From positions 32,001-96,000 of IMG/VR virus record IMGVR_UViG_3300045974_000760: a stretch of 64,000 nt of DNA. One strand, written 5' to 3'. The notes beneath the pieces are model-generated. The model made no database searches and was not told the DNA's origin. It worked only from the letters and a program-made list of their open reading frames with translations. This stretch comes from a virus. Positions 8,578 through 63,656 of this stretch are shown in pieces (the first letter of the stretch is position 1; every line of letters starts with the position of its first letter). A program made the translations under genes and the position numbers.

Positions 8578-8974
8578 AGACACACTTCAGACCGTTCTCG
8601 GGCTTCTGAAGCAACAGGCAGCGCGCATCGATGAGATTGGCACTGCGTTCAATCAGAACGCCGGCGCCTACTACGAGGGGTACCAGATGACGGAGATGTG
8701 GTCCGTCATCCAACGGCGCGTGCTCAGCGACATGTTGCGCGGCGAGGTCTACACCGTCGAGGTCGAGTACGCGCTGCCCCTGCGTCCGACAGACCTGCTG
8801 GACCAAGCGATGCACCCGTGTGTTGACTGGCAGAAGTACAAGGAGGACTACATCGCGATGATTGGGCTCATCGCAGCGCTCGATAACCTCAAGCACGTCT
8901 TCTACGGCTCGCAGGTGAAGTTGGCCACCGAAGCCGATTTGCGTGTGATTGAGTTCGGCGGGGATGTACCCTTA
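8507..8974 (+). CDS. hypothetical protein (ends at TTA)
   Basis: GGAG RBS; in-frame TTA 8972-8974 with an ATG 3 nt later. Confidence 0.6.
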
Positions 8975-27133: not shown

Positions 27134-27955
27134 ATGACGAAGGAGGAGCTGAAGTTTGGAGCTCCGCCAGCCAAAGCCGGGGCTCAATCCCCGGCTTTGA
27201 CGTATATGGCGGACAAGGCCTCACGCGCTAGCCCGAGCGCACGTACCGAACGTGAGCTGCAGATGTGGCACACGTGGAATGACAGCGGGCGAAAGCCCGA
27301 ACACCTCGAGCCCCTGCTCAAAGCCTACGAGCCCATCTTCTCTCAGAAGGTGCGGCAGTGGTCGGCTGGTGCAGCGGGCGTGAATCCCATGTTCATGCGC
27401 GCGCAGGTCGAGAAGCACTTCATCGACGCCGTGGGGAAGTTCGACCCCAGCCGTGGCTATGCGCTTGCGACTCACGTCGACAAGCCGATGAACAAGGCAC
27501 AGAGGGCGCGCAACACGGTGCAAAACGCGGCCTACGTCTCCGAGGAGACAGCCCGCACTATCGCGCCCATCCAGAACGCCACCGCCGAGCTGCACGCAGA
27601 GCTCGGCCGAATGCCTACCCCGCAAGAGATTGCTACCAGGTCGGGGCTTGGTCTTCGCGTCATCAAGCGACATCAGCTCGAGATTCGCAAAGACGTCGCT
27701 GCCTCGGCGTACGAGAACGACCCCACCGAGAACCCGATGAATCGGGCTCACGATATCGCTCCCCTACTTCGGGAGCAGTTCCAGCAGCCCGGCTTCCAGC
27801 CTCACGTACTACACGTGTTTGACCACACGTTCGGGCTGAATGGAGCTCCGACAGACCTGAGCGGCGGGCAGCTCGCCAAGAAGCTCGGCGTCTCACCCTC
27901 GGCCATCTCTCAAGCGAAGAGCCTCATTCTCGCTGAGACAAAGAAGTACCTGTTA
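27134..27955 (+). CDS. RNA polymerase sigma factor, group-3-like (FliA/SigB/WhiG type), ends at TTA
   Basis: Region 2 AVGKFDPSRGYALATHV, region 3 LGRMPTPQEIA, region 4 LSGGQLAKKLGVSPSAISQ...KKYL followed by TTA. Confidence 0.8.
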
Positions 27956-28033
27956 TACCCACCCGCAGTACATCGAGGCCCGTCACTCATAGCGAGAGGC
28001 GGGCCTCTCTCATTTCCAAAGGCACAACAAGAC

Positions 28034-29020
28034 ATGGCTCACGAACTCGCAATCGACTCCCTCGGCGCGCAAATGTTGTACGCAGGTGAAACGCCTTGGC
28101 ATGGACTGGGCACGAAGATCGAGAAGCACGTCACCAGTCGCGAAGCGTTGGCAATCTGCCGCGCGGACTACGCAGTGAAGTGCGGGCAGCTCTTCACCTC
28201 GAAGTCGGTGCCCGTCAACGCACAGTACATCTACAGGGAGGACGCAGAGGGGGTGCAGACCATCCTGGGGCACCACGTTGGGATGGACTACACGCCGCTG
28301 CAGAACGTGGATGCATTCACGTGGTTTGACCCGTTCCTGGAGAGCGGGATGGCCGCTATCGAAGCGGCGGGCGTACTGCGTGATGGCGCACGTGTGTGGG
28401 TACTGGCTCGCATCGAAGGTGACCCGCTTGAGATCTTGCCGGGGGATGTGGTGGTGAAGCGCTTGCTGCTGAGCAACGACCACAGCGGCATGCAGGCGGC
28501 TCGAGTGGGGCTGACCCCGATTCGCACCATTTGTGCAAACACGCTTGCGATGGCGTACGCGGACAAGAGGTCCCAGCTCTTGCGTGTCAAGCACACGCGT
28601 AACATCAAGGACGCACTCGCGGTGGTGCGGGAGACCATTGACGTGGTGAACAACGAGTTCAAGGCCACGGCGGAGCAGTACCGCCGTCTCACCACGATGG
28701 GTGTGGTGGAGAAGGACATCGAGAAGTACGTGAAGCTGGTGTTCGCTCCCGGCACCGCGCCCGATGCACCGGATGAGCAGCTGGTGGGCAGCTCAGCGGG
28801 CAAGCGTGTGTGGGAGCAGATCAAGCCGCTGCTCGAGGTGGGGCGAGGTGCCTCCATCCCCGGAGTACGCGGTACGATGTGGTCTGCATTCAACGCAGTG
28901 GTTGAGTACGTTGACCACAGCCGTGGACGTAGCCGTGAGTCGCGCCTGGAGTCGCAGTGGTTCAAGGATGGCGCGGCCCTGACCTCCCGCGCGCTCAAGT
29001 TGGCGCTGCAGGCTGCCTGA
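28034..29020 (+). CDS. DUF932 (phage/plasmid-like) protein
   Basis: MAHEL...ETPWHGLG start; LSNDHSG...TPIRTICANTL; GTMWSAFNAVVEYVDH. Confidence 0.85.
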   Translation: MAHELAIDSLGAQMLYAGETPWHGLGTKIEKHVTSREALAICRADYAVKCGQLFTSKSVPVNAQYIYREDAEGVQTILGHHVGMDYTPLQNVDAFTWFDPFLESGMAAIEAAGVLRDGARVWVLARIEGDPLEILPGDVVVKRLLLSNDHSGMQAARVGLTPIRTICANTLAMAYADKRSQLLRVKHTRNIKDALAVVRETIDVVNNEFKATAEQYRRLTTMGVVEKDIEKYVKLVFAPGTAPDAPDEQLVGSSAGKRVWEQIKPLLEVGRGASIPGVRGTMWSAFNAVVEYVDHSRGRSRESRLESQWFKDGAALTSRALKLALQAA

Positions 29021-33552: not shown

Positions 33553-33914
33553 AGGTCGTGCATATCGCGCCGGAGAAGCACCGTGACCTAGCATTTGGCG
33601 TGGTCGCGCACGCACTGTCATTCATCGTACCCCTCAACATCCGCGTCATCATCTTCGAGCTCGCTTCGGTGAGCTTGAAGGCGGAGGGCGCATCGGATGC
33701 TGAGGTGCAGCGTCTTGGCGAGGAGCTCGCGGACTTCCTCCTTCCTGAACGCGAGGATGGCAAGTACGAAGCCATCAAGGACAACCCGAGGGTTGCCCCG
33801 CTGCTGGCACAGCTACTCGAAGAGCGGTTCCCTGGTTTTCTCCCAACCCCGAAGGCAAGGAGCAAGAAGCGTGAGCCCAAACCCAAACTCAAGTCACCAA
33901 CCAAGGGTAGATTA
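33549..33914 (+). CDS. hypothetical protein (ends at TTA TTA)
   Basis: Tandem in-frame TTA 33912-33917 after a Lys-rich tail. Confidence 0.55.
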
Positions 33915-33936
33915 TTACCCAAACGTCAGGCACGTT

Positions 33937-46917: not shown

Positions 46918-46951
46918 AAACGCGAACCCCACACTACACGCGAGGCACAAC

Positions 46952-47746
46952 ATGATTGTTACCGTCACACGCAAGCAGCTGGTTGATGTCGAGGCATGCG
47001 AAGCCTCGATGGACTTCTTCGACAGCATTGCGTTTACGTCAGGTCGGGGCCCCGACTTCAACTACGTCATCGTCGACACGCGCGACACATTGCTCATGGT
47101 GTGGTTCTACTCCTACTACCACGAGTGGGCTCAGTTCGCGGTTCGGCATGGGCTACTGCCCTACTTCGGCCTACGCAATCAGGTCGTGACCAAGCTCGAG
47201 ACTCAGTACCTGCGTGCAGAGCGAGCGGTAATCAGCGAGTCAGTCCTTGTGGACTGGAACGTTATTGACACCAACTTTGAGGGCGCGATGTTCGATCGCG
47301 TCGACATCAAAGACAGTGAGCTGAGCGGGATGCACATGCCAGGCATGGATATCCGCTTCTCGAACCTACGCCGTGTGATGTGGGGCTACGTGAACTTGTC
47401 CGACGGGTGCGTGTACCAATCCAACTTCTACAAAGTGAACATGCATCACGCGCGGTTTAGCGACACCCTCTTCTGGGGGTGCAGGTTCGACAATGTCGAC
47501 TTGTCGAGCGCGCATGGAGGCAAGGTCCGCTTCCGCAACTGCGCGTTCAAAGATACGAAGCTCGCCAACATCGACCTGCGCACGGCAACGTTCGAGGAAT
47601 GTGTCTTCTACGGGGAGGAGATGGACCTCTCCCTCACCATGGTCAATCCCGCCACCTTCCCGTATGTCAAAGGCTGGACGGTCAGCCCCGAGGGAGTGAT
47701 GCTGCGGGAGCCTGCACCACCTCCCGGTACAACTGCCGATGTCTGA
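46952..47746 (+). CDS. pentapeptide repeat protein
   Basis: TNFEG/AMFDR/CRFDN/VDLSS/ATFEE repeats. Confidence 0.85.
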   Translation: MIVTVTRKQLVDVEACEASMDFFDSIAFTSGRGPDFNYVIVDTRDTLLMVWFYSYYHEWAQFAVRHGLLPYFGLRNQVVTKLETQYLRAERAVISESVLVDWNVIDTNFEGAMFDRVDIKDSELSGMHMPGMDIRFSNLRRVMWGYVNLSDGCVYQSNFYKVNMHHARFSDTLFWGCRFDNVDLSSAHGGKVRFRNCAFKDTKLANIDLRTATFEECVFYGEEMDLSLTMVNPATFPYVKGWTVSPEGVMLREPAPPPGTTADV

Positions 47747-48170
47747 TAACTACGTGAGCATGTGGGGCACGCTCAACTGGCGTACCCCCTTCAGCAACCC
47801 CAAGGTGCATGTCGTAGTAGACGTGGACCCCGAGCTCGCTGCATACGCGCGCACGTTCATCCCACCGTCAGAGCGTATCAACGTCCCTCGCTACCCCGCC
47901 CACATCACGGCAATGCGCGGGGAGGGGACACACAAGCACCACAGACGGTTGCTCGAGAAGGTACGGGGCATGGTCATCCCATTCGAGTGCGGGAAGATGT
48001 CGGAGCTCAGGCACGACAACGTGTACTGGTGGCTGCCCGTCTACTCGCCCGCGCTTCTGATGTTGCGCAAGCTGCTCGACTTGCCCGAATACACCGAGCT
48101 CACGAAACCACCTGATGGTGCGGAGATGTTTCACATCACCGTCGGCAACACGAAAGGTTGGGCACCATGA
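47739..48170 (+). CDS. 2H phosphoesterase-like protein
   Basis: Two H-I-T motifs (PAHITAM, FHITVG) about 78 aa apart. Confidence 0.7.
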   Translation: MSDNYVSMWGTLNWRTPFSNPKVHVVVDVDPELAAYARTFIPPSERINVPRYPAHITAMRGEGTHKHHRRLLEKVRGMVIPFECGKMSELRHDNVYWWLPVYSPALLMLRKLLDLPEYTELTKPPDGAEMFHITVGNTKGWAP

Positions 48171-48949
48171 CGCACACCATCACTCTCACCACTACCGAGC
48201 TGCGGGATGCACGTGCTTGTCCCGCCGGTCTTCGCGCATTCCAAAAGCTCATCGGCAAGGGTAAGCGCTCCATCTCTTTCAATCCCGCTGACCCGCTCAT
48301 CGCCCTCTGGTCGCGCTGCGTCTATGGCCAGTACGTTCACTGGCTCGAGCGCGATAAGCACATGCCGCCTCTAGCCCTCCGCAGTACCCTCATCCAGAAC
48401 GCGGAGCTCCGCGACCTCACCGCGGTCGGCAGCCAATGGTCGCTCGTCAACATTCGTAAATCCAACATCTTCCACGCCACCTTCAACGCGGCGCTCTTCG
48501 ACACCTCCTCCATCAGTCACTCAGACCTATTTGGGTCGCGCTTCAACAACGCGACTTTTCTGAGCTGCAATCTCTTCAATCTGACGCTCACTCAAACGTA
48601 CTTTGGGCACACGCGCTTCAGCCAATGCAGCTTCAGCGATTTGTCGACCAGGCTCGCCTCCTTTCACGGCGCGGTCTTCACAGATTGCACCTTCACAGAT
48701 TGCGACCTCAGTGATGGCAACTTCAAGTACGCCATCTTTCGCGGCTGTCGCTTCGATCGGTGCAAGTTCTCAGGTGCGCATCTAGGCAAAGCCATCCTCT
48801 CCGATGGCTTCTACTCCAACACAGATCTGGGTGGGGCACTCCGCTTCAAAGAAGACCCTCCCCTCCCCGGGTACCGCACCAAGAAGTACAAGCCCGTCCC
48901 GGATTACGTTGTGCTGGAGTCGAGGTACAAGAAGCCGACGAGGGAGTGA
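48167..48949 (+). CDS. pentapeptide repeat protein
   Basis: ATFNA/SDLFG/AVFTD/CDLSD repeats; N-terminal L..ARAC..G shared with 46952. Confidence 0.85.
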   Translation: MTHTITLTTTELRDARACPAGLRAFQKLIGKGKRSISFNPADPLIALWSRCVYGQYVHWLERDKHMPPLALRSTLIQNAELRDLTAVGSQWSLVNIRKSNIFHATFNAALFDTSSISHSDLFGSRFNNATFLSCNLFNLTLTQTYFGHTRFSQCSFSDLSTRLASFHGAVFTDCTFTDCDLSDGNFKYAIFRGCRFDRCKFSGAHLGKAILSDGFYSNTDLGGALRFKEDPPLPGYRTKKYKPVPDYVVLESRYKKPTRE

Positions 48950-49052
48950 TGTAGAAGGCGGGCCCATCAAAGGCCCTTTCTTCTAGCCCTGAATCTACAT
49001 CCTCTTCTCGGCATAAGAAGGTTGACCCCCAACCCTACGCACGGAGACTCAC

Positions 49053-49517
49053 ATGCCCAACGAAATCATCCACCTCGTCGGTTACGAACAGAAGCGCCCC
49101 TACGCCCTCAGCGACAATGGCTTCACCGTCACCGGGCCTACACAGACAACGCTATACCTGCTCTGCAAACAACACCGCCTCACCGTGCAAGTGACCGCGG
49201 ACATGTCCAGCGAGGACGTGATTGCGTTCTTGCGCGAGTCAGTACCTCTCGATGAGGTGCACACCACCGTCCTCGAGCGCCTCACTGTTGCTGCGCGTTA
49301 CATCGATGAGAAGCTGCGCAAGACCGTGAACTGGTACAGCGGCTACGACATCGATGCCCGCCTCGAGGCACTCACCTTTCGCGCGGCCCTGACCGAGCCC
49401 CCATTCAACGAGAAGAGGCGGGAAGCCCTCGCCGACCTCATCGACACCATTCAAACGGGCAGGTCATACGTCGCCCCGTACATCATCGAGAACACGATGT
49501 CGGTGAGGTCGGGCTGA
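49053..49517 (+). CDS. hypothetical protein
   Basis: GGAG RBS; promoter motif 48991-49017. Confidence 0.65.
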   Translation: MPNEIIHLVGYEQKRPYALSDNGFTVTGPTQTTLYLLCKQHRLTVQVTADMSSEDVIAFLRESVPLDEVHTTVLERLTVAARYIDEKLRKTVNWYSGYDIDARLEALTFRAALTEPPFNEKRREALADLIDTIQTGRSYVAPYIIENTMSVRSG

Positions 49518-49906
49518 TGCCTACGCACAAGGACGTGTACCTCGGCGACGGCTACATGCTGCACACGTACGAGGACGGCAACGCTCGCATTCGCAGGGAG
49601 TCCGAGCACCTCATGGGCGGCACCCGCTTCAATCAGGTCCAGCTACAGAAGCTGGTCGACGGGCTCATTGAGTCGGGCGTTGTTGTGGCCCCCGCAGACA
49701 AGCTCGCGCAGTTCCTCGAGCGATGCGACGGGCGCATCAAGAGTGTGCGCCGCCACCTCCCCGAGGATGAGGAGGCGGGCATCTACGTTGTGATGCACGA
49801 GACTACCTTCTGCACCAAGACCGCAAGCAGGGTGCAGGAGTACGCCGAAGAGGTGTTCGGGGTTGATGTGAGAGTGTGGATTGAGAAGGAAGTACGAAGT
49901 GAGTGA
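49517..49906 (+). CDS. hypothetical protein, paralog family A
   Basis: LQKLVDGLIESGVVVAP motif. Confidence 0.65.
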   Translation: MPTHKDVYLGDGYMLHTYEDGNARIRRESEHLMGGTRFNQVQLQKLVDGLIESGVVVAPADKLAQFLERCDGRIKSVRRHLPEDEEAGIYVVMHETTFCTKTASRVQEYAEEVFGVDVRVWIEKEVRSE

Positions 49907-50111
49907 GCTGAGGCGCGTCGTGGTGTTCAATCTCACTCTCCCCTCAACGCCGGGGAAGGTGAGTGCCTCAGTCTTTCGGTGTGAGTGCAAGAAGGGGGTG
50001 ATGTTCGATGTCACCTCCAAGCTCGCTGAAGCAATGGGCGTCCTGCATCACGAGTGCGACATCTGTCACATGCGCGTTGTAACCAAACTACGTAGGGGAG
50101 AAGAGAAATGA
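49899..50111 (+). CDS. small Zn-ribbon protein
   Basis: CEC...CDIC. Confidence 0.6.
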   Translation: MSELRRVVVFNLTLPSTPGKVSASVFRCECKKGVMFDVTSKLAEAMGVLHHECDICHMRVVTKLRRGEEK

Positions 50112-50866
50112 TTGGACCTGGAACATACGCGGTGATTCGAACCATCGGTGCGGGTGTACACGTGGGCGAGATTGTGGATTGGGACGTCAGCAACTCCACC
50201 GTCGTGTACCTGAAGAACTGCCGGCGCGTACACAAGTGGAGCAGCGCCGCTTCCCCGCACATCCACACGCTCAACGAAATGGCAGTGCGCGGGTTGAACA
50301 AGAGCGACAGCCGGGTGACTGCCCCCATCCCGAACTACACCCTTCTGACCGCAACTCAAATCCTGCCGATGTCCAACCTGGCCATCAGCTCGTTCGAGGA
50401 GGTGGGCTGGGAAGGGGACATGTACAAGCTGCCCTTCGAGGCTCAACCCAAGGCCCCGCCCGAGGGCATAGTCGCCCATGAAGGTGTCACCTGCCTCATA
50501 CGCACCTACGGTGCGGGCGTCTCCCTCGGTGAGGTGGATGCCTGGGACCCCCGCTACCCTGGCGTTGTGCACCTCCGCAACGCACGGCAGGTGTGGCAGT
50601 GGGACAACGCCGTGGCCGGGCCTGATGGACAGGTGTACGTCATCCACAGCATCTCTGAGGCAGCTGCTGTGGGCCCAGGCACAAGCGGCCGGGTCAGCGA
50701 GTACGTCGAGGAGGAGACGATAACGTCAGCCCTCGAAATCATCCCCATCTCTGCCTACGCGCTGCAGCAGTACGCCGCGCAAGGCTGGGAAGCCCCCTAC
50801 AACGGTCGCCTTCCAGTGGGCGAAGAGCCGCCACAGAGGCTACATGCTGACGATGAGTACGCTTAG
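50108..50866 (+). CDS. tandem DUF6948-like domain protein
   Basis: Two copies of IRT.GAGV..GE.....V.L.N.R.V..W......E.A..G.......I.P.S..A.......GWE. Confidence 0.7.
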   Translation: MIGPGTYAVIRTIGAGVHVGEIVDWDVSNSTVVYLKNCRRVHKWSSAASPHIHTLNEMAVRGLNKSDSRVTAPIPNYTLLTATQILPMSNLAISSFEEVGWEGDMYKLPFEAQPKAPPEGIVAHEGVTCLIRTYGAGVSLGEVDAWDPRYPGVVHLRNARQVWQWDNAVAGPDGQVYVIHSISEAAAVGPGTSGRVSEYVEEETITSALEIIPISAYALQQYAAQGWEAPYNGRLPVGEEPPQRLHADDEYA

Positions 50867-51128
50867 CCACATCAGGTTGATGCTGTTCGGTCCGTACGAC
50901 ACTACGTTCAGCCCGCACCTTCCCTGTGAGATTCGGGGATGTGCGGGCAGTCGTTGTGAGCTCATGTCCGAAGACATGTTCTACGGTGACGGTGAGGACA
51001 TACACTTCGGCACGCGCAGCTACGACAACGAGCTCGAAGCGCCGGAGTACATACCCGACGGGCCCATTGGCTCCTTCGAGATGGCAGGGCCTCGCGCAAG
51101 GCGCGCGGTCTTGGGCGTCTATGCGTTA
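50853..51128 (+). CDS. array peptide 1 (ends at TTA)
   Basis: TTA 51126-51128 overlaps the next gene's start (ATG 51121). Confidence 0.55.
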
Positions 51129-51294
51129 CATCTGGCTCATACTCGGGCCCGGGCCCCGGCACGAGCTCCACACCGAAGAGACGCGCTTCTGCTTCGATGA
51201 CTGGAAGGCCGACGCAGAAGAGTACCCAGAACCTCCCTGTAGTGAAACGAAGGCCAGCGGCTGCCTGGCAGTGGAGTATCGAGAATGGAGGTGA
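51121..51294 (+). CDS. array peptide 2
   Basis: MRYIWL...DAEEY...VEYREWR. Confidence 0.55.
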   Translation: MRYIWLILGPGPRHELHTEETRFCFDDWKADAEEYPEPPCSETKASGCLAVEYREWR

Positions 51295-51298
51295 GCAG

Positions 51299-51508
51299 AT
51301 GATGACCTGGCTACGGTTGTTTCGAATGACACCGATGACGGAGAACTGCAGGTACAAGTCCGGCGTTGGTGCGCACCAGCGTCAGCACATGCCGTGGGAG
51401 GCGCAGATGTGGCCCGGTCTTGCGGACGGGGGCAGCATCTTCGAGAGCAGGGGCGAGGGCATACATCCGATGGCTGACTCTCGCGGTCTATTCACGGCTC
51501 CAGAATGA
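51299..51508 (+). CDS. array peptide 3
   Basis: GGAGG RBS. Confidence 0.6.
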   Translation: MMTWLRLFRMTPMTENCRYKSGVGAHQRQHMPWEAQMWPGLADGGSIFESRGEGIHPMADSRGLFTAPE

Positions 51509-51705
51509 TGCAGATCTTGAAATGGCACTACTACATAGTCGGTGAACCTGGGGACTCGATCGCGGGGCAAGGTGACTATCGTTTCGCAGCGGGGATTGCA
51601 ACACCTGCTGCGCCGCGTTTTTCCGACGAGTACGACGAGCACCACGGGGGTGGAACAAATGAGCTGTGGAGGAGGCCAGAACGTGATGACACTACAACGG
51701 ATTGA
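51505..51705 (+). CDS. array peptide 4
   Basis: ATGA coupling. Confidence 0.55.
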   Translation: MMQILKWHYYIVGEPGDSIAGQGDYRFAAGIATPAAPRFSDEYDEHHGGGTNELWRRPERDDTTTD

Positions 51706-51892
51706 TTTCACCGTCGGCATGCACTTCGTACATGCCGGGCGGGACGAGCTCGGCATCTACGGCAATGGCCAGTACATGCACTACCCGTACGCCGTAGATG
51801 CCGTCAGCATCGGTGATGGTTGGTGCGGTACGGACGAAGTAGTTTGCCACGGCGAAGGCGCCTCCTACAGGAATATTGCGCATGATACCTAG
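51686..51892 (+). CDS. array peptide 5
   Basis: GGAGG RBS; YGNG and GDG motifs. Confidence 0.6.
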   Translation: MTLQRIDFTVGMHFVHAGRDELGIYGNGQYMHYPYAVDAVSIGDGWCGTDEVVCHGEGASYRNIAHDT

Positions 51893-52085
51893 CAATGCCC
51901 TGCTCATCGTGCGGTCCCGCTACACACTGTTTGCTGAGCCGTGCCCTGGCCTAATGGCCTCCGACGCGGCCTGGTGCGCCTCACTGACCAACACACAGGA
52001 CGCACGACGTACCTGGCATTGTTACCTCATTCGATACCGAGAGTGCATCGGTGAAGCGGAAGGATGGGAAGATGATTGCGGTTAG
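51882..52085 (+). CDS. array peptide 6
   Basis: AGGA RBS. Confidence 0.55.
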   Translation: MIPSNALLIVRSRYTLFAEPCPGLMASDAAWCASLTNTQDARRTWHCYLIRYRECIGEAEGWEDDCG

Positions 52086-52281
52086 AATGTCCCACTACGC
52101 GTACTGGGGTACTTCCAGTCAACCGTATCGACACTACGCTGAGTCGCAATGTGAGTACCTTTGCGAGCGTCCGTGGAAAGGTGACGCGGAGGAGTACGTG
52201 TACGATGAAGAGGAAGCGCTGAGCGGTTGTCTGTACGAGGAGTACACGTACAGCCACCGCTCGGCAGAAGGGCGGTGTTTA
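52072..52281 (+). CDS. array peptide 7 (ends at TTA)
   Basis: Paralog of peptide 9; TTA 52279-52281 gives a near-identical length (69 vs 70 aa). Confidence 0.65.
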
Positions 52282-52282
52282 C

Positions 52283-52468
52283 GTGTGGCTACGAGCTCTG
52301 CCCTTCGTGCCCTACATGCACTTCTACGAGTACACGCCCATTGCCTCCCACGAATACAACCTCGTAACGGAGTGGAACGTGTTGCTCGTAGAAGAGCTCG
52401 ATACAACGAACCCAACATACCGAGGTTACTGCGCGGACGAGATACTAGACACACACAGGGGCATCTAA
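52283..52468 (+). CDS. array peptide 8
   Basis: GTG 1 nt after TTA; TAATG coupling to the next gene. Confidence 0.55.
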   Translation: MWLRALPFVPYMHFYEYTPIASHEYNLVTEWNVLLVEELDTTNPTYRGYCADEILDTHRGI

Positions 52469-52680
52469 TGATTGTGCTTCGAATGTCTCACTACACGTAC
52501 GAAGGCACGCACGCGCAGGATGAATGTGCGGACTGGTATAGCGAGGCGTATCCGCCACATTACCTCTGGGCGGTAGATGCGGAGGAGTATGCCTACGTGG
52601 CCCCCCTCCCTGGTGAGCCAGGAGGCGGTGTGCTCGACCACGAGTACACCTACAGTAGTCGCGAGATTGAGAATCGATGA
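52468..52680 (+). CDS. array peptide 9
   Basis: MIVLRMSHYTY...DAEEYAY...EYTYS. Confidence 0.65.
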   Translation: MIVLRMSHYTYEGTHAQDECADWYSEAYPPHYLWAVDAEEYAYVAPLPGEPGGGVLDHEYTYSSREIENR

Positions 52681-52883
52681 ACAACAACGCCTATCTCGTG
52701 TGGGTACAACAGCAGCGGTGCGTCTTGTTCAGTACGCAGAGCCCGCTCGCTGACACGTACAGCCTGTGGCGCGATGATGATGCCCGTGCCTGTCTGCAGG
52801 CCCGTATCTCGCGGGATTACGAGGATTACACCAATCCTCAGCTCGTACTGAACGACTACAGCGCGGGTGTACGAAAAGAGTAA
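52677..52883 (+). CDS. array peptide 10
   Basis: ATGA coupling. Confidence 0.55.
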   Translation: MNNNAYLVWVQQQRCVLFSTQSPLADTYSLWRDDDARACLQARISRDYEDYTNPQLVLNDYSAGVRKE

Positions 52884-52934
52884 ATCGGGGATAAGAAGTA
52901 CGCAGGCGGTTACTACACACAGGAGGAAGAACAG

Positions 52935-53348
52935 ATGGCTGATGCATCAACGGGGAAGTTTGAAGTGGGCGCGCTGAGCGCGTCGTACCGGCAAGAGGGT
53001 TCACTCACCTACGTCACGCTGCACCGCGCGGGCAACTCTAGTATCGGCCCCGCTGTCTTGGGGGCTACCGCAGAAGACCTGGCAAAAGTAGTCGCAGAGC
53101 TCGTTGATCGAGGGCTCGTGCAGCTGCCCGTAATGCCGACACAGAAGCGTGAGGCGCTCAAGAAGAAGATCGCCGAGCTGGGCATAGATGCGACCGTGAG
53201 CGACCCGGCTGATTACAAGGCACACGATTGGTGCACCGCTGAGGTGCTGGCGGTCGTAGTGGTTGCCTCCCTCACACTCGACCAGATGCGGCTACTGCTA
53301 GTCACGTGTAGAGAGACATTCAAGGATAACGAGGTAGTTATCCGATGA
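52935..53348 (+). CDS. hypothetical protein, paralog family A
   Basis: AGGAGG RBS; promoter motif at 52891; LAKVVAELVDRGLVQLP. Confidence 0.7.
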   Translation: MADASTGKFEVGALSASYRQEGSLTYVTLHRAGNSSIGPAVLGATAEDLAKVVAELVDRGLVQLPVMPTQKREALKKKIAELGIDATVSDPADYKAHDWCTAEVLAVVVVASLTLDQMRLLLVTCRETFKDNEVVIR

Positions 53349-53527
53349 GCGTCATCGTCATCATCGACCTCGAGGGTGATGAGGCGGCGAAGCTGTTGAA
53401 GTCCGCCATCATCATGCGGGACGCTGACCTCAAGCGCATCAAGCGCCTGGTGAAGAAGCTCGGCTTCCTCGATGAGTTCAAGAAGCTGGGTATTGACGTC
53501 TACCCAATCAAGGCAAAGAAGACATGA
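53345..53527 (+). CDS. small hypothetical protein
   Basis: Coupled ORF. Confidence 0.6.
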   Translation: MSVIVIIDLEGDEAAKLLKSAIIMRDADLKRIKRLVKKLGFLDEFKKLGIDVYPIKAKKT

Positions 53528-54234
53528 GCGCGCCCAAGTACTGCTGCGACACGATGAAGCGGCAGATGGAGCACAACTGCGTCAAGTGCATGGGCCAGTA
53601 CGCTTGCCCCGACAGGGTGATCAAGCCACCCAGCGTCCCTGGTGCCGCGTTTGGACTCTACATCCTCGACGGGGGCGCTGCGTACTACGCCATCTACTTC
53701 TGCCCCTGGTGCGGAGCGCGTTTGGCCAGCTGGTGCGGGGCGTCTCAACAAGAACAACCGACCAAGGAGGAAGTGATGGAAGACGAACGGAAGAAGCCAA
53801 TCGAAGGCAACGTTGACTCGTACCGGGAGATCCTCGAGTACAGGGGCTATGACCGCTCCGCTGTATTGCGGTTGCCGTCACGCGCGCCCATCACTCTGCA
53901 GCGCTATGAGCTCGTGGCGGTCGCCATGGCCGTGTTTGGCATGCTTCGAGACAAGTTCAAGGGCGCGGCGCCTGAGCAGGTGTTTGATGCGATTGCGCGG
54001 ATTGTGAGCAGCGAGTGGAAGCCGTCTCCGCAGGAGGTGAGGGACGCGGGCTTCCTGTTGAATCAGGAGCTCACCCTGGCTGGGTGCGCCACGTTTGAGA
54101 TGGTCGGCTACACGCTGACCGAGCTCGTGGTGTACTACAAGGCCGGTGTTCCAAACACCGCCACTGCCAGCGCGTTTCTGCAGAACCTCCCACCCTCGTA
54201 CCGAGGTGTGCGGGTTGTGCCAAAGGCCGTGTGA
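53524..54234 (+). CDS. DUF6980-like Cys-rich N-terminal domain protein
   Basis: YCCDTM...CPD....FGL.I.DGG....I.FCPWCG; possible internal start near 53773. Confidence 0.6.
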   Translation: MSAPKYCCDTMKRQMEHNCVKCMGQYACPDRVIKPPSVPGAAFGLYILDGGAAYYAIYFCPWCGARLASWCGASQQEQPTKEEVMEDERKKPIEGNVDSYREILEYRGYDRSAVLRLPSRAPITLQRYELVAVAMAVFGMLRDKFKGAAPEQVFDAIARIVSSEWKPSPQEVRDAGFLLNQELTLAGCATFEMVGYTLTELVVYYKAGVPNTATASAFLQNLPPSYRGVRVVPKAV

Positions 54235-54449
54235 TGAAGACCACCTACCTGATGTACTTCCTGAGCATGGCCCTTGTGGTCGTGCTCGGGAGCTGTGGTG
54301 CACGAGACACAGATAAGAACCCTTCTCCAGAACGTGCGTGTGAGCTCGCTTGTTTGCCTGGCAGGGGGACGCTCAGTACCTTCTTCAACAACGGGCACTA
54401 CAGCTGTATCTGCGCCCCACTACCTTGCCCATCTGGGAGTGCACGATGA
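54231..54449 (+). CDS. Cys-rich lipoprotein-like peptide
   Basis: VLGSC lipobox; CELAC...SCIC. Confidence 0.65.
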   Translation: MMKTTYLMYFLSMALVVVLGSCGARDTDKNPSPERACELACLPGRGTLSTFFNNGHYSCICAPLPCPSGSAR

Positions 54450-54601
54450 AAAGCAATGAGAGCCCGCTGAAGAACCCGGAGAACTGGCTTCTTGTGTTCG
54501 TGTGGGCTTGCGCGATGGGCGCGGCCTTCCTCACAGGTATGCTCGCAGGTGACCGGTTGCCTCACGCTCCACCCTCATGCACGTGTAGGTGTGAGCGATG
54601 A
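54446..54601 (+). CDS. small membrane peptide
   Basis: TM helix followed by CTCRC. Confidence 0.55.
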   Translation: MKSNESPLKNPENWLLVFVWACAMGAAFLTGMLAGDRLPHAPPSCTCRCER

Positions 54602-54990
54602 GCAACATCACGGTCGAGACGTGGGTAGACACCGCGACGAGTGAGAAGGAGCTGCAGGAGACACCCGACTACCTACGCGAGCTCATCCGCAAGATGGTAG
54701 CGGAATGGATGACGCGGGAGCCGGACCTCAGTGATACCGGCGCGCGGGTACTTGCAGAGAGTGGCATCAAGGCAATCTGCAAGTACTCCGACTTCCTACT
54801 GGTGTTGGGCGACGGGCATATCCGTGACCCGCAGTACCTCGTGCGCTTTGCGCTCCTGCCTCATCCGCAGCGTGAGGTATTGTGCAAGAAGTACGCGGCA
54901 CGCTTGTTCATGGCCCGCTCCGTGTTGGGCTTCTCGTGGGTCAGCCACGCGCAGCTCGAGGCAACCGTCAGCTACATCGAGGGTAAATGA
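54598..54990 (+). CDS. hypothetical protein
   Basis: Coupled ORF. Confidence 0.65.
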   Translation: MSNITVETWVDTATSEKELQETPDYLRELIRKMVAEWMTREPDLSDTGARVLAESGIKAICKYSDFLLVLGDGHIRDPQYLVRFALLPHPQREVLCKKYAARLFMARSVLGFSWVSHAQLEATVSYIEGK

Positions 54991-55397
54991 CTACGTGCAA
55001 AGTGGACAGTCGGTACTCGTGGGACGTACGAAAGCAGTACATGAATCGCGAAGGACAGCACATCGCCATTCGGGAGGAAGGACTGCTCGACACCGTGAGC
55101 ACGGTTGTTCTGTCCGGCCCGGTACTTCAGGATATCTTCGAGGAGGCGCTGAAGCGCGGGCTGGTGTTGATGCCGCTGACCAAGCAGCAGAGGCTAGACA
55201 AGCTGCAGGAGCGCTATGCGCTTATCAAGTGGCTTCGCAAGATGGTGTTCTGCGCGGGCGCGATACCCGTGGTGCATGTGAAGCTCAACGGTAGGGCGCT
55301 GCTGGATGAGATCAATGTCTTGCGGGATGAGATTCGCAGGGAGCTCGGTGACGAGGTTCAAGTGAAGGTGACCTTCGGCGACGATGGAGACCAATGA
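54987..55397 (+). CDS. hypothetical protein, paralog family A
   Basis: LQDIFEEALKRGLVLMP. Confidence 0.65.
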   Translation: MTTCKVDSRYSWDVRKQYMNREGQHIAIREEGLLDTVSTVVLSGPVLQDIFEEALKRGLVLMPLTKQQRLDKLQERYALIKWLRKMVFCAGAIPVVHVKLNGRALLDEINVLRDEIRRELGDEVQVKVTFGDDGDQ

Positions 55398-55486
55398 TGT
55401 GAGGTAACGAGAAAGGCGCGGTCCCGTCTTTTTCGTAGCTATATGTCTTGCCCCGCAAATACAAGCGCGTAGTCGGGATAAGCCAT

Positions 55487-59020: not shown

Positions 59021-59091
59021 GGGAGGTTGGGGCGGTTCCCCTAGCGGGCCTTATAAGCCGTGATCCACGGGTTCAACTCCCGTACCTCCTA
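59021..59091 (+). tRNA. tRNA-Ile(UAU), atypical anticodon stem
   Basis: Acceptor GGGAGGT/ACCTCCT; D stem GGGG/CCCC; loop CT-TAT-AA; T arm ACGGG-TTCAACT-CCCGT. Confidence 0.6.
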
Positions 59092-59121
59092 CAACAACCA
59101 CAACACAGAAAGGAGCAGCCC

Positions 59122-59565
59122 ATGGCTGTTCGACGTATCCGTGTACCTGCGCGCGAGCTCTCACCCGAGCTGCTCGATGCGGTTCGCGCTATTGCAGCAA
59201 CCAATGATGTACCTGCAGAGGACGTTGAGGTTGACATCGTCAGTCCAGCGGATGCGCCACTACGCGACCGCGTACTAGCTCTGCTGGGAACGCCGCGTGA
59301 GGGCCCGGTGTTTGAGCAGCAGTACCAAGGCATGTTCATCGAGGCTGATAGAGTGCCTGAGCACCCTGAGCTAACGCCACAGCAACAGGCGATACTGAGG
59401 CGGCAGCGAGAAGCGATGTTCGGGAGGAGATACGGGCGTAGCGGCAGAGACTTCAGTGTTTCGTCCCCGCCGCTCACAGAGGAAGAAGGGCGCGCCCTGA
59501 GCAATACACTCGTGGACTCCTTGCGTACACCGCCAGTGCTGCGCAGACCGCATCTTCATGTCTGA
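59122..59565 (+). CDS. hypothetical protein
   Basis: AAGGAG RBS. Confidence 0.65.
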   Translation: MAVRRIRVPARELSPELLDAVRAIAATNDVPAEDVEVDIVSPADAPLRDRVLALLGTPREGPVFEQQYQGMFIEADRVPEHPELTPQQQAILRRQREAMFGRRYGRSGRDFSVSSPPLTEEEGRALSNTLVDSLRTPPVLRRPHLHV

Positions 59566-59965
59566 GCAAGACTGGGCAGACATCCAGCAGTGGAGCGGTG
59601 AGTCGCCGGATATGGCAGATGCCGTGGCCATGGCCGTAGCAAACACCGTCAAGCCGCGGGTGAAGCGCCCGAAGTACCTCGGTGAACTCATGAAGAAGGG
59701 CGGGCTCGATATCGACGCCATCATCAATAGCCGGGTCGGTGACTACTACTCCCTGGACAAGCCCCGTGACCCAGGCTTCGCCAACTACCTCAAGGACACG
59801 TACAGGTGGAGTAAACACGAAGCTCGCCGCCAATGGCGCGCCCTACTCGATCGCGATATCGACCCCGCGGTAATACTCAACACAAGGAGGGCAACGTGGC
59901 GAAAGATGACGCAGAACAAGCAAACGAAGGTCGCGACCTCGGAGCAGAACCTAGTAGAACCGTTA
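59558..59965 (+). CDS. LG.L..LDID-motif protein (TTA 59963; next standard stop 60001)
   Basis: YLGELMKKGGLDIDAIINSR. Confidence 0.6.
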
Positions 59966-60642
59966 TCCAGACACACTCTGTGCAGCACGTCTTCGCTGTA
60001 GGGGAGGAGAGGGCAGTCGGCGCGATGGTGGATGGGCGCTATCACGAATACAACCACGGCGAGACCGTACCCGGACCGAATGTCATCGAGGTGGTCGCGC
60101 AGCTCGAGACTCCGCTGGAGTACATTCGTATGCAGCTGCAGATCCCCGATGAAGTAGTTGTCGAGGCTGCCGCCGCGGGGGCGTTGCGCACTCTCACTGA
60201 CGGGGTGGAGGCGATGTACCTGCTCGACCGGCGAATCATGCGGATGCCACTGCTTCCATTCGGCCCGCTTCATCAGTCGAGGGTGCCGCTGCCCATGCCT
60301 CCGCTCCCAACAAGCAGCGCGGTCTTCCCGCCCTACCGCAACAGCCTGCCCGTACCCCGCCCAGCATGTCTCGGGGAGTTGATGAAGAAGGACGGGAAGA
60401 ACATCGACGCGATAGTAGAAGCGCGGGCGCCCGTACGGTACCCGCGGCACAGGAACCTCAATCAGCTCAACCCAGTGCATCGTGGTGTCCGCGAACAGTT
60501 CAAGGAGTACCTCATTACGAGAGGCATTACCGCCAAGAACTCCAGGCAAGCCTGGGCTACGTCGTCGGAGGAAGGGCAGAGCCCAAGGTTCGTGCTGGAG
60601 TACAGCTTCCAGTACTTCATGCATCGACTGAGGGCGACGTAG
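59896..60642 (+). CDS. LG.L..ID-motif protein
   Basis: AAGGAGG RBS before GTG; CLGELMKKDGKNIDAIVEAR. Confidence 0.65.
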   Translation: MAKDDAEQANEGRDLGAEPSRTVIQTHSVQHVFAVGEERAVGAMVDGRYHEYNHGETVPGPNVIEVVAQLETPLEYIRMQLQIPDEVVVEAAAAGALRTLTDGVEAMYLLDRRIMRMPLLPFGPLHQSRVPLPMPPLPTSSAVFPPYRNSLPVPRPACLGELMKKDGKNIDAIVEARAPVRYPRHRNLNQLNPVHRGVREQFKEYLITRGITAKNSRQAWATSSEEGQSPRFVLEYSFQYFMHRLRAT

Positions 60643-60643
60643 G

Positions 60644-60681
60644 ACCGCAGGAGCGTTGTACTTCCCGCGGTTTTCTTAGCT
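60644..60681 (+). terminator. hairpin + TTTTCTTAGC
   Basis: ACCGC.GGAG/CTTCC.GCGGT stem. Confidence 0.65.
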
Positions 60682-60820
60682 ACAACACCGCCAATACAAA
60701 AGGTACTTGCGCTTCTGAAAACGCGCTGTATTACTTCCCTCGTCCCGAAGTACAACCTAACCGGTGACGAGGGACCCCCTCTTAGCAGTCAGTAACGCTC
60801 TGTGAAAATGTAAGCCGGTC

Positions 60821-60903
60821 GGAGTTCGATAGGACATGGCTGTCCAGGCGGTCTGTAACACCGCGGCCCTACGGGGCGAGTGGTTCGATTCCACCGGGCT
60901 TCA
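60821..60903 (+). tRNA. tRNA-Tyr(GUA)
   Basis: GCGGT-CTGTAAC-ACCGC anticodon arm; long variable arm; GTGG-TTCGATT-CCAC T arm. Confidence 0.8.
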
Positions 60904-61027
60904 CTGGAAGAGCTGGCCGCCCCTCGGGGAGGAGGGGCTCTTCCTACTTTTTGTTCGGGTCGTTGGTTGTGGGTTACCCCATCGAAAAAGTCCCCCACGT
61001 CCATTCATTTATCCGAACTTGTAGTAC

Positions 61028-61113
61028 GCCTCGTGTAGCTCAGTTGGTAGAGCGCGGGATGACATCCGAAAGGGGTCTGCCCGAGGTCGATGGTTCAAGC
61101 CCATCCACAGGCA
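61028..61113 (+). ncRNA. tRNA-like RNA lacking an anticodon loop
   Basis: Canonical D arm (TAGCTCAGTTGGTAGAGC) and T arm; anticodon arm replaced by an extended stem capped by GAAA. Confidence 0.65.
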
Positions 61114-61206
61114 CACGGGCTGAATAAGCTCGGGCGCAAGCCCCTCTACTCTTGGTGACACAAGAGATAGACTGAGTTCCGGCTCAGAGGTAAACCGGAG
61201 AAGTAC

Positions 61207-61283
61207 GGGTAGGGAAGAGAAATGGTTCTCACTGGCCGCGTAGTTCGTCCACGCCCCGTCGGTTCGATTCCGACCTCTACCCC
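61207..61283 (+). ncRNA. atypical tRNA-like RNA (8-bp acceptor)
   Basis: GGGTAGGG/CTCTACCC; GAGAA-ATGG-TTCTC; GTCGG-TTCGATT-CCGAC; no canonical anticodon arm. Confidence 0.55.
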
Positions 61284-61291
61284 CGCCGGTC

Positions 61292-61393
61292 CCCGATGAC
61301 GAGTCGACTTACTCTACGTAAGATGTTGGCCGTCTCTGTTCGCCTCTCGTAAACGCTAGCCTCTTCACGAGCGACAGATAGAGAATAATCGGG
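61292..61393 (+). ncRNA. multi-stem structured RNA of unknown class
   Basis: CCCGAT/ATCGGG closing stem with two internal hairpins. Confidence 0.4.
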
Positions 61394-61418
61394 AGTACTG
61401 GCAGCTACTTGTTGTATT

Positions 61419-61491
61419 GAGGCGTTAGCTCAGGTGGAAGAGCGGTGAGCTGTTAACTCACTTGTCGTTGGTTCAACTCCAACACGCTTCG
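61419..61491 (+). tRNA. tRNA-Asn(GUU)
   Basis: GTGAG-CTGTTAA-CTCAC; G discriminator. Confidence 0.9.
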
Positions 61492-61615
61492 CATGCTGGT
61501 TGTACCGAGACAAGCTTAAGCCCGTGACGCTTAGGCGCTTGCACTCCCCGATGATGTTCTAGACTACTTCAAAGGGGCGGGTGAGCTAGACGTATAGCCG
61601 GCAAGTTCTTTTTTT

Positions 61616-61687
61616 ACCAGCATAGCTCAGCGGTAGAGCTTCGCCTTTACACGGCGGATGTCGGGGGTTCGAATCCCTCTGCCGGTA
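61616..61687 (+). tRNA. tRNA-Val(UAC)
   Basis: TCGCC-TTTACAC-GGCGG; canonical D and T arms. Confidence 0.85.
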
Positions 61688-61691
61688 CAAT

Positions 61692-61766
61692 GCGCGAGCG
61701 GCGAAACTGGCAAACGCACATGCCTTAGGAGCATGAACTCTAGGGGTTCGAGCCCCCTCTTGCGCA
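61692..61766 (+). tRNA. tRNA-Leu(UAG), short variable region
   Basis: CATGC-CTTAGGA-GCATG; Leu-type D arm GGCGAAACTGGCAAACGC. Confidence 0.8.
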
Positions 61767-61779
61767 TAGTTGTTTTCAC

Positions 61780-61852
61780 GCTGACGTAGCTCAGTCGGTA
61801 GAGCTCCTGTTTTGTAATCAGGGGGTCGGGGGTTCAAATCCCTTCGTCAGCT
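61780..61852 (+). tRNA. tRNA-Thr(UGU)
   Basis: GCTGACG/CGTCAGC acceptor; loop TT-TGT-AA. Confidence 0.9.
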
Positions 61853-61933
61853 CTTCGCCGCGATAACCCAGCTAGAGGAACCACTAGCGTCTCAGTCTCG
61901 GTTGTTTTCGGCGGCCAACCGTAGAGGAAGAAC

Positions 61934-62432: not shown

Positions 62433-63656
62433 ATGTCGGGTTCCCACTACGGTCAGCCAGTACAACTCATCGACGGTCAGCTCGACGCCTTCGCTCGTGT
62501 TCGTGTAGCCGAGCCCACCTACGTCTTCGACGCGCAGTTCACCTACGACATCCACCCGCTGTTGTACGAGCCCCTGGTCGCAGGCACCGGCGCCACAGTC
62601 ACGCACGACTCGACGAACCGCTGTGCACTGATGACGTTCGCAGCAACGCCTACCGGCGGTTCTGCCATCCTTCAGACCTTCGAACACTTCCGGTATCAGC
62701 CCGGTCGTTCTCAGCTCGCCCTTATCACCTTCAACTTCAGGGGCGGTGCAGCTAACTGTTTGAAGTTCGCTCTGTACGGCGATGCTAACAACGCCATCGG
62801 TTTCGAGCTCAACGACTTCGTACCTCGCGTCGTCATCCGCTCCGGTACATCCGCAGGCAGCCAGTTCGTCGACCAGAAGGACTGGAACGTCGACAAGCTA
62901 GACGGCAAGGGCCTGTCGAAAGTTCTTCTCGACCCCACCACTACACAGATTCTCGTCGTCGACTTCCAGGCTCTCTACGTCGGCCGCGTTCGCATCGGCT
63001 TCGACATCAACGGACGCATCTACTGGGCGCACGAGTTCTGGAACGCCAACGCCCAAGCGTTCCCCTACATCCAGTCGGCGAACCTTCCTATCCGCGTTGG
63101 GATGACCTGCACCGGCACCGTCTCCACCACCATGATCTTCTGCTGCACCTCCGTGAGTGCAGGCGGCGGTGAGGCGGATGTCGGTGGATACAACTTCGCC
63201 GTCGAAGGTACTGGCACCGCAGGCAGCTCGATCGACGCGCACATCCTCTCCCTCCGCCCGAAGACGACGTTCAATGCCATTACCAATCGAGTGAAGTTCA
63301 TTCTCGATAGCGTAGATGTCACCGTCACCGGCACACCACCAGTGCTGTGGTCTCTCTGTCTCGGGCAAGCCATCACGGCGGGCATCTGGGCAAACGCGAA
63401 TACGCTCTACTCCGCATTCGAGAGCACAACGGCGGGCGTCATCAGCGGCACGCCTGCGATCGTGATTGCGAAGGGATACTGCGCCGCGACTGCGACGGTG
63501 AAGCAAGCCATCTCCAAGACCATCGCTGCGCGCTACCCCATCACGCTAGACGCGGCGGGAGCTGTGCGGGCGCTTGGTACGCTGTCTGTCAACGCGCTTG
63601 GCGTGGGCGGGGCAAGCGCTTGCCGCGTCATTCTCAACTGGCGTGAGCTCCGGTGA
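62433..63656 (+). CDS. beta-sandwich virion protein
   Basis: DAFARVRV..P...FD; FRYQPGRSQ; W..DKLDG.G.S; VGRVRIGF; leaderless TGCTATACT-N7-ATG. Confidence 0.7.
   Translation: MSGSHYGQPVQLIDGQLDAFARVRVAEPTYVFDAQFTYDIHPLLYEPLVAGTGATVTHDSTNRCALMTFAATPTGGSAILQTFEHFRYQPGRSQLALITFNFRGGAANCLKFALYGDANNAIGFELNDFVPRVVIRSGTSAGSQFVDQKDWNVDKLDGKGLSKVLLDPTTTQILVVDFQALYVGRVRIGFDINGRIYWAHEFWNANAQAFPYIQSANLPIRVGMTCTGTVSTTMIFCCTSVSAGGGEADVGGYNFAVEGTGTAGSSIDAHILSLRPKTTFNAITNRVKFILDSVDVTVTGTPPVLWSLCLGQAITAGIWANANTLYSAFESTTAGVISGTPAIVIAKGYCAATATVKQAISKTIAARYPITLDAAGAVRALGTLSVNALGVGGASACRVILNWRELR

Follow-up and report, generated by a model that had tools for sequence, protein, structure and literature searches.

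Hfq, the bacterial Sm-like protein, carries a disordered C-terminal tail, with GGFGGQ repeats in Acinetobacter and an acidic tip in E. coli. A pairing of a small core with a low-complexity partner also occurs in tailed phages, where a gene of the DUF6948 family (Pfam PF22253) and an adjoining gene coding for a protein with glycine at every second residue (Gly-X repeat) are among the commoner conserved gene pairs, including in cultured Ralstonia, Pectobacterium, Vibrio and Iodobacter phages. A search of the literature returned no paper mentioning DUF6948 or PF22253, and no phage paper for the repeat words. Here we describe a locus in a stretch of 64,000 nucleotides (the window, bases 32001-96000 of the 143-kb IMG/VR virus record IMGVR_UViG_3300045974_000760), in which a gene coding for two DUF6948 domains is followed by ten short genes, p1 to p10, that code for non-repetitive peptides. 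This tandem core with its ten-gene array is a variant of an unpublished but widespread phage module. More specifically, we regard the locus as a derived, amplified form of the module made of a DUF6948 (Sm-like) core and a low-complexity partner peptide, a reading to which we give a probability of roughly 0.45.

According to the preliminary description of this DNA, DUF6948 genes usually neighbour genes coding for GDG/GYG-repeat peptides. To compare the partners, we recorded the gene adjoining DUF6948 in 18 independent loci. This statement was borne out, as a Gly-X repeat gene, with Ser, Tyr, Asp or Asn between the glycines, adjoins DUF6948 in 14 of the 18, and a Gly-X tail is joined directly to the DUF6948 core in two core-tail fusions (P0078 and P0135). 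Named phages with this arrangement are Ralstonia phage NK-7 (core XCO36016; partner XCO36015, annotated as 'fibroin heavy chain-like'), Pectobacterium phage Koroua (core XDF89606; partner XDF89605), Vibrio phage IKEMa6-1, Iodobacter phage PhiPLPE and Chlorobiaceae phage CV-1-33. The other records comprise two faecal phage scaffolds, two spring-water phages and several metagenome contigs, and the core is itself tandem in three metagenome contigs with a Gly-X partner (P0003, P0005 and P0017). In locus L019, three non-repetitive peptides lie behind the tandem core P0004; they start with PQW(L/A) and end with GDG(T/S)G, and the locus is an intermediate form between the usual pair and the array described here. 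The remaining three loci either end too soon or have a non-repeat neighbour. In other phages the module is found among AAA_24, ERF, RecE and Gp157 genes. The geometry of the junction is likewise recurrent: p1, which is in the +1 frame relative to the DUF6948 gene, begins 14 nt (or 23 nt) ahead of the stop codon of that gene and reads MSTL, while the partners in Koroua, PhiPLPE and the Vibrio phage start with 17-nt overlaps reading MSKL, MSRL and MPRL.

Annotation of the Gly-X repeat gene is at times missing or placed in a wrong frame. In Iodobacter phage PhiPLPE, an unannotated open reading frame (ORF) coding for an 81-aa Gly-X protein lies behind the DUF6948 gene gp84 and before gp83 (L035:1164-1409). 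In Chlorobiaceae phage CV-1-33 (MT192033, gene_25; L029:3340-3585), the annotated product MAMAMALAM... is the wrong frame of a GYGDGSG Gly-X gene that starts just past the DUF6948 gene, and L037 and L021 present the same error of frame. In the two faecal phage scaffolds (L032:1776-2297 and L036:1764-2336), the Gly-X stretch forms the N-terminal part of a protein of 173-190 aa, whose C-terminal domain is conserved and folded, contains FAHGETL and WHH..TGSC motifs, and has no Pfam or PHROG match.

The protein heading the array had been described as carrying two copies of one small domain, and Pfam analysis confirmed this: the 252-aa product matches PF22253 (E = 1.2e-27, 96.3 bits against a cut-off of 27) in two stretches, at window positions 50123-50392 (52.9 bits) and 50489-50767 (47.5 bits), which correspond to domains at residues ~1-99 and ~121-226. 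An exhaustive HMMER search for DUF6948 yielded 162 representatives (E ≤ 1e-3), the majority being single-domain proteins of 90-135 aa. Tandem proteins account for 6 of the 162, this lineage counted; P0003, P0004, P0005, P0007 and P0017 are full-length tandems and P0002 is a truncated relative of the lineage studied here. The AlphaFold2 model of the tandem protein, built from a 91-row alignment, has a mean predicted local distance difference test score (pLDDT) of 85.7 and a predicted template modelling score of 0.83. In fold searches, each modelled domain superposes on LSm/SmAP chains with Z-scores of 7.1-7.5 and root-mean-square deviations of 1.7-1.9 Å over 62-66 residues. Sm/LSm chains or LSm-type domains fill roughly 40 of the top 50 rows, and nearly all Foldseek and VIA-align matches of each domain are also Sm/LSm (Foldseek probability ~1.0). 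The matches include archaeal SmAPs, LSm1-8 and the LSm domains of EDC3 and LSm14. The modelled domains lack the N-terminal helix that belongs to the Sm/LSm fold, and have instead an inserted helix (residues 55-61 and 182-188) and a C-terminal helix. Both DUF6948 domains are thus predicted to adopt the Sm/LSm fold, with its strongly bent antiparallel beta-sheet of five strands, a likeness at the level of fold only and of moderate strength (Z below 8).

The genes of the locus are listed below, where L015 designates a short contig that carries a related locus.

50108-50866, + strand: tandem DUF6948 gene, 252 aa; its start overlaps the stop of the upstream gene (ATGA).
50853-51128, + strand: p1, 91 aa; 50844 and 50880 are alternative starts; its first 14 nt overlap the DUF6948 gene.
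51121-51294, + strand: p2, 57 aa; paralogous to p7 and p9; ATG located 5 nt ahead of the TTA of p1.
51299-51508, + strand: p3, 69 aa; ribosome-binding site GGAGGTG upstream; no homologue found; absent from L015.
51505-51705, + strand: p4, 66 aa; ATGA overlap with p3; absent from L015.
51683-51892, + strand: p5, 69 aa; GTG start (ATG at 51686); GGAGGAGG site upstream; motifs YGNG, GDG and HGEGA.
51882-52085, + strand: p6, 67 aa; five Cys; lowest coding score of the ten, yet positive.
52072-52281, + strand: p7, 69 aa; ends at an in-frame TTA (52279-52281), 1 nt ahead of the GTG of p8.
52283-52468, + strand: p8, 61 aa; GTG start; coding score among the best of the ten.
52468-52680, + strand: p9, 70 aa; paralogue of p7; TAATG junction with p8.
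52677-52883, + strand: p10, 68 aa; ATGA overlap with p9; followed by a 51-nt gap to the next gene at 52935.

Coding potential was evaluated with a codon-usage model for which 33 long ORFs of this genome served as training set; the log-likelihood of each frame was compared with that of the other five. The tandem gene and all ten small ORFs gave a positive log-likelihood in their own frame, and in a sliding scan the best frame ran 0-1-2-1-2-0-1-2-1-0, changing exactly at the proposed gene boundaries. Within the array, neighbouring genes either overlap, by ATGA or TAATG or over 8-23 nt, or are separated by 1-4 nt, and clear Shine-Dalgarno-like sites precede several of the starts. Sequences of 60% GC contain many spurious ORFs and the scores of p6 and p2 are only modest, which would suit chance open frames or decayed pseudogenes. 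We consider this explanation highly improbable, as all ten ORFs score positively in the proposed frame only, a start codon stands at each frame switch with Shine-Dalgarno-like sites before several of them, synonymous changes are in excess in the conserved genes p1 and p5, and p7 and p9 retain 44% protein identity. The ten ORFs are real coding genes, and the ten coupled ORFs of 57-91 aa announced from the bare sequence are all present, with coding-like codon usage and tight junctions.

The lengths given for two of these ORFs hold only if the codon TTA terminates translation. The last codon of p1, which contains the motif YGDGED, is an in-frame TTA (51126-51128), and the first stop codon of translation table 11 is not reached until 51198-51200; under table 11, p1 would therefore comprise 118 aa, end at 51200 and overlap p2 by ~80 nt. 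The frame of p7 would run on to 52680, straight through p8 and p9, to give a 202-aa product. At the junction of p1 with p2 (ATGCGTTA, 51121-51128) the in-frame TTA lies at the start of p2, and at that of p7 with p8 the sequence reads TTA-C-GTG (52279-52285). Past each TTA the coding score is strongly negative in the interrupted frame and positive in the frame of the next gene: the p1 frame scores positively up to ~51120 and negatively past its TTA, and the stretch 52255-52467 is negative in the p7 frame and positive in the p8 frame. In alignment, p7 (TTA, preceded by ...GRC) and its paralogue p9 (TGA) end at most one residue apart. The p1 homologue of L015 likewise ends with ...GVYA followed by TTA, and the tails that follow the TTA are unrelated in the two sequences (23 codons in the window, 67 in L015).

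TTA is rare in the genome as a whole (18 of 41,159 codons in coding-like ORFs). When we considered in-frame TTAs preceded by 40 coding-like codons (n = 17), 12 (71%) were found at frame ends, compared to 5-35% for 13 control codons. Those at window positions 8972, 20284, 27953, 33912-33917, 41191, 51126, 52279 and 59963 cluster at frame ends and often adjoin the start of the next gene (TTATGA, TTA-N-GTG, and a TTATTA doublet). In the nearest long relative of the phage, IMGVR_UViG_3300033066_001323 (G001), a TTA is likewise retained where the same gene of the structural module ends. The eight tRNA calls of the phage, whose record is ~77% complete, include tRNAs that read ATA, GTA, CTA and ACA as well as Tyr and Asn tRNAs, and none is a tRNA-Leu(UAA); no RF-1/RF-2 release-factor domain was found in this record. 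The array could also be read as fewer, longer genes, in which TTA is translated as Leu (p1 of 118 aa; p7 as a two-repeat protein of 202 aa covering p8 and p9) or in which frameshifting joins ORFs. Both frames are indeed open under table 11, and 5 of the 17 in-frame TTAs do not fall at an evident end of a frame: one has an in-frame ATG after it, another splits the 628-aa ORF described below ahead of its DUF932 domain, and for none was a position within a conserved domain demonstrated. Such a reading is nevertheless improbable given the drop of the coding score past each TTA, the unrelated tails behind p1, the separate start of p9 and its TGA where p7 has TTA, the excess of TTA at frame ends over every control codon, and a tRNA set covering ATA, GTA, CTA and ACA, not TTA. 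Hence p1 and p7 appear to end at TTA instead of a standard stop, and the tests are in keeping with a putative role of this codon as terminator in the phage.

Other observations bear on decoding in this phage. The tRNA set lies at window positions 59021-61853, where ARAGORN in addition predicts an unusual tRNA whose anticodon has 2 bases (61029-61114). Outside the window, the same program calls a further tRNA.

G000:C1:109393-109464, - strand: tRNA with a CTA anticodon ('Pyl', amber-reading).

A 628-aa table-11 ORF at 27134-29020 contains an in-frame TTA at codon 273, located between an N-terminal part with weak resemblance to sigma-70 region 3 and a DUF932 domain (residues 381-609); this ORF may consist of two genes.

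The tandem core has one close relative, P0002, which shares 81% identity and is encoded on L015, a 1345-bp Joint Genome Institute (JGI) contig (JGI sample 3300020036). Gene order on L015 is DUF6948, a p1 homologue, an unrelated 82-aa gene, a p5 homologue and the start of another gene. The p1 proteins share 64% identity, with codon differences of which 26 are synonymous and 30 non-synonymous, and the p5 proteins share 50%. The 82-aa gene has only its MRY start in common with p2, which is forced by the overlap with the end of p1. Compared to the window, L015 has thus kept p1 and p5 and replaced p2, and p3 and p4 are absent. Judging by this comparison, p1 and p5 are conserved coding genes and turnover acts on whole genes. 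No relative of the locus was recovered by megablast against phages or by IMG/VR scans with the core protein, the alignment of tandem homologues and the p1 alignment, and two JGI metagenome scans and one genome scan yielded no further one.

Within the array, p7 and p9 are clear paralogues (similarity z = 11.9, tblastn 5e-7, 44% protein identity), and p2 belongs to the same family (z = 8.7 against p7); all three carry W..DAEEY and G.L..EY. The recurring words reported earlier are present as described (DAEEY in p2, p7 and p9; EYTYS in p7 and p9; YGDG in p1; YGNG and GDG in p5). As an array-wide signal they fall short, since DAEEY and EYTYS stem from this one three-member family, and the view of the ten peptides as a single diversified family did not survive, only p2, p7 and p9 being related by sequence. 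The seven others have no significant similarity elsewhere in the genome, and DNA-level repeats in the region are confined to those of the three paralogues. None of the ten peptides has a Pfam or PHROG match above threshold. Word-based protein searches with p5 and p1 returned zero matches, and in the ESM Atlas p1 retrieved nothing and p5 only sub-threshold matches to multihaem cytochromes, which we read as chance.

By composition, however, the ten peptides form one class, as determined against 33 other coding-like small ORFs of the same phage. Their net charge is more acidic (P = 0.003; -2 to -10 in 9 of the 10) and their Lys/Arg content lower (P = 0.004), Tyr amounts to 7.5% compared to 3.0% (P = 6e-4), and Cys and Trp are also raised. 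This signature starts with p1 and ends with p10, and the flanking genes lack it. The short hydrophobic and basic N-terminal motif noted earlier is weak, although Trp does occur within the first 10 residues more often than in the other small ORFs (5/10 compared to 3/33, Fisher P = 0.01). Gly-X remnants as a statistical signal in the array were not significant. The resemblance of p5 to the folded domain behind the Gly-X stretch of L032 and L036 (F.HGE word) was rejected at an hhalign probability of 0.5%. The notion that a basic core attracts the acidic peptides by charge was rejected in view of the neutral mean charge of the family and the net charge of -12 of the tandem protein.

We propose that the core gene would have been duplicated in tandem in this phage lineage, and that the partner slot, usually occupied by a single Gly-X gene overlapping the end of the core, would have come to hold ten translationally coupled mini-genes. 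The direct positional counterpart of the usual Gly-X partner would be p1, whereas p2, p7 and p9 would have arisen through duplication, and whole array genes would be gained, lost or replaced between relatives. The Sm-like protein may act as an oligomeric hub on RNA or single-stranded DNA early in infection, with the peptides as its separate, exchangeable 'tails' or adaptors, in the manner of the Gly-X tail of the core-tail fusions. The earlier idea of a variable, expanded partner array is supported: there are ten genes of one composition, and L015 carries a different set. The peptides are not Gly-X repeats and are mostly unrelated in sequence.

Several observations weigh against this derivation. 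Small coupled ORFs also precede DUF6948, both here and at other loci, hence adjacency alone is weak evidence. No sequence link connects p2-p10 to Gly-X genes, and small coupled genes are common in such operons. For the seven peptides other than p2, p7 and p9, similarity was detected neither among themselves nor with Gly-X partners or any other sequence searched. Glycine is not enriched in the ten peptides (1.5-14.7%; P = 0.39 against the other small genes), and G[DNE]G motifs show no excess (3/10 peptides compared to 5/33 small ORFs), so that none of the peptides is shown to derive from a Gly-X gene. AlphaFold2 modelling on the alignment of p9, p7 and p2 gave a pLDDT of 42 and no secondary structure; as this alignment has only 3 rows, the low value is weak evidence of disorder. 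The tandem protein is acidic (net -12), while DUF6948 proteins are neutral on average. Finally, the comparison of the array rests on one short relative of 1345 bp.

The source is a large, soil-type phage of ~60% GC, with a record estimated to be ~77% complete. Genes in the window are almost all on the + strand and include a tRNA cluster. Most of its large proteins lack a PHROG match, which makes the phage a distant outlier among known phages. One structural protein is 80% identical to its counterpart in G001; only the structural (virion) module is common to the two, and the DUF6948 gene was not found in G001. The common virion module extends from window position 62433 onward, and nothing is common in 28000-62400. 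The entire accessory region, ten-gene array included, is on this comparison lineage-specific. In the operon just upstream of the locus (46952-48949), two pentapeptide-repeat proteins lie on either side of a 2H phosphoesterase (PF22547, 27.8 bits), company typical of counter-defence genes. A terminator-like hairpin at 48960-48976 precedes the following genes.

49053-50111, + strand: three genes of 154, 129 and 76 aa, coupled to one another and to the DUF6948 gene; without Pfam family.

The DUF6948 gene is consequently not the head of the coupled chain, as had been thought, since these three genes precede it. The last of them (49881-50111) codes for a Cys-rich protein of 76 aa (C.C ... C..C) that overlaps the DUF6948 gene by ATGA and has no family match. 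An Rfam search of the region for RNA elements gave zero matches.

This setting is relevant to the view that the ten peptides are mutually independent accessory or early genes, coding for example for inhibitors of host proteins or defence, that merely lie downstream of DUF6948 in a long coupled operon, with no functional tie to it. Seven of the ten are unrelated ORFans, coupled small genes also stand upstream of DUF6948, the array belongs to an accessory block entirely missing from G001, and its neighbours include the pentapeptide-repeat proteins and the 2H phosphoesterase. Small acidic phage proteins are, moreover, often nucleic-acid mimics. We regard independence as the main rival reading, plausible though short of even odds. 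Against it stand the very strong adjacency of DUF6948 and its partner elsewhere (14 of 18 loci and the fusions), the position of p1 in the exact partner slot with the same overlap geometry, a composition common to all ten peptides and missing in the flanking genes, and the several non-repeat peptides behind the homologous tandem core of L019.

If the locus is instead the amplified module that we propose, physical docking of the peptides on the tandem DUF6948 protein would be conceivable, and we hold it as a doubtful proposition. The predicted complex of the tandem protein (residues 1-230) with p1 scored under the mark and was run without controls; it counts neither for nor against binding. An elaborate version, in which the tandem protein is a hub docking ten fast-turning-over, disordered aromatic and acidic adaptors, each directing it to or blocking a different host RNA or protein target, and in which TTA is a true terminator in the same operon, seems to us unlikely. 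If true, such a hub-plus-peptides arrangement would be a protein-level 'library' system without described counterpart. The peptides could also act as decoys or inhibitors of host defence, a possibility raised from the outset.

The third function suggested at that stage, that of leader-core substrates, would make the peptides precursors of ribosomally synthesized and post-translationally modified peptides (RiPPs), with DUF6948 as recognition element. The short, hydrophobic and basic N-termini, the tails rich in Cys, Tyr and His, and the layout of one conserved small protein with several variable peptides behind it would fit. The suggestion lost ground on the gene content, as no Pfam family of modifying enzymes, proteases or exporters occurs in 46950-55400, no modifying-enzyme family lies within 4 kb, and the genes from 46952 to 55397 include no Pfam family of RiPP recognition elements. 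No leader is common to the ten peptides, of which only p2, p7 and p9 share sequence, and the modelled DUF6948 fold is Sm-like and not the winged helix of known RiPP recognition elements. To our knowledge, no RiPP precursor peptide resembles the long Gly-X repeats that are the usual partners. We consider a RiPP system very unlikely.

Behind a duplicated core, the partner slot of the DUF6948 module can hold a whole series of genes for acidic, aromatic peptides without repeats. Should these peptides play the part of the partner, what is required of a partner would be a physicochemical type (acidic, Tyr-rich and unfolded) and not the Gly repeat. Were this true, hypotheses on the function of the module would be narrowed, and non-repetitive, clonable partners would become available for binding work. 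The paralogues p7 (TTA) and p9 (TGA), for their part, offer a compact internal test of TTA termination in high-GC phages.

Of the systems with which the locus can be compared, the DUF6948 and Gly-X module is the closest: the core family is the same, the partner gene comes next after the core, on the same strand, with its start inside the last codons of the core or shortly past them, and the usual partners resemble the ten peptides in being acidic and Tyr-rich, without predicted fold. The locus differs in that its core comprises two domains and its partners are ten different non-repetitive peptides, where there is usually a single (Gly-Ser/Tyr/Asp)n protein; the alternation of glycine with other residues is absent here, p1 having only YGDGED. 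Hfq resembles the core-tail fusions P0078 and P0135 in joining an Sm-type core to a low-complexity, partly acidic tail. It has no sequence relation to DUF6948, its chains reach Z ~4 in the fold search compared to 7 for LSm/SmAP, and at the present locus the corresponding tail would be encoded by separate genes. The peptide-binding LSm domains of EDC3 and LSm14/Scd6 (PDB 2vc8, 6f9w and 4a54), which are among the structural matches of the DUF6948 domains, show that a divergent Sm fold can serve to dock short linear motifs; they belong to eukaryotic mRNA-decay factors, and the likeness is one of fold only. As for TTA, the mitochondria of Thraustochytrium (NCBI table 23, UUA = stop) likewise have in-frame TTA where genes end, whereas the present case concerns a phage in which a few in-frame TTAs lie away from obvious ends.

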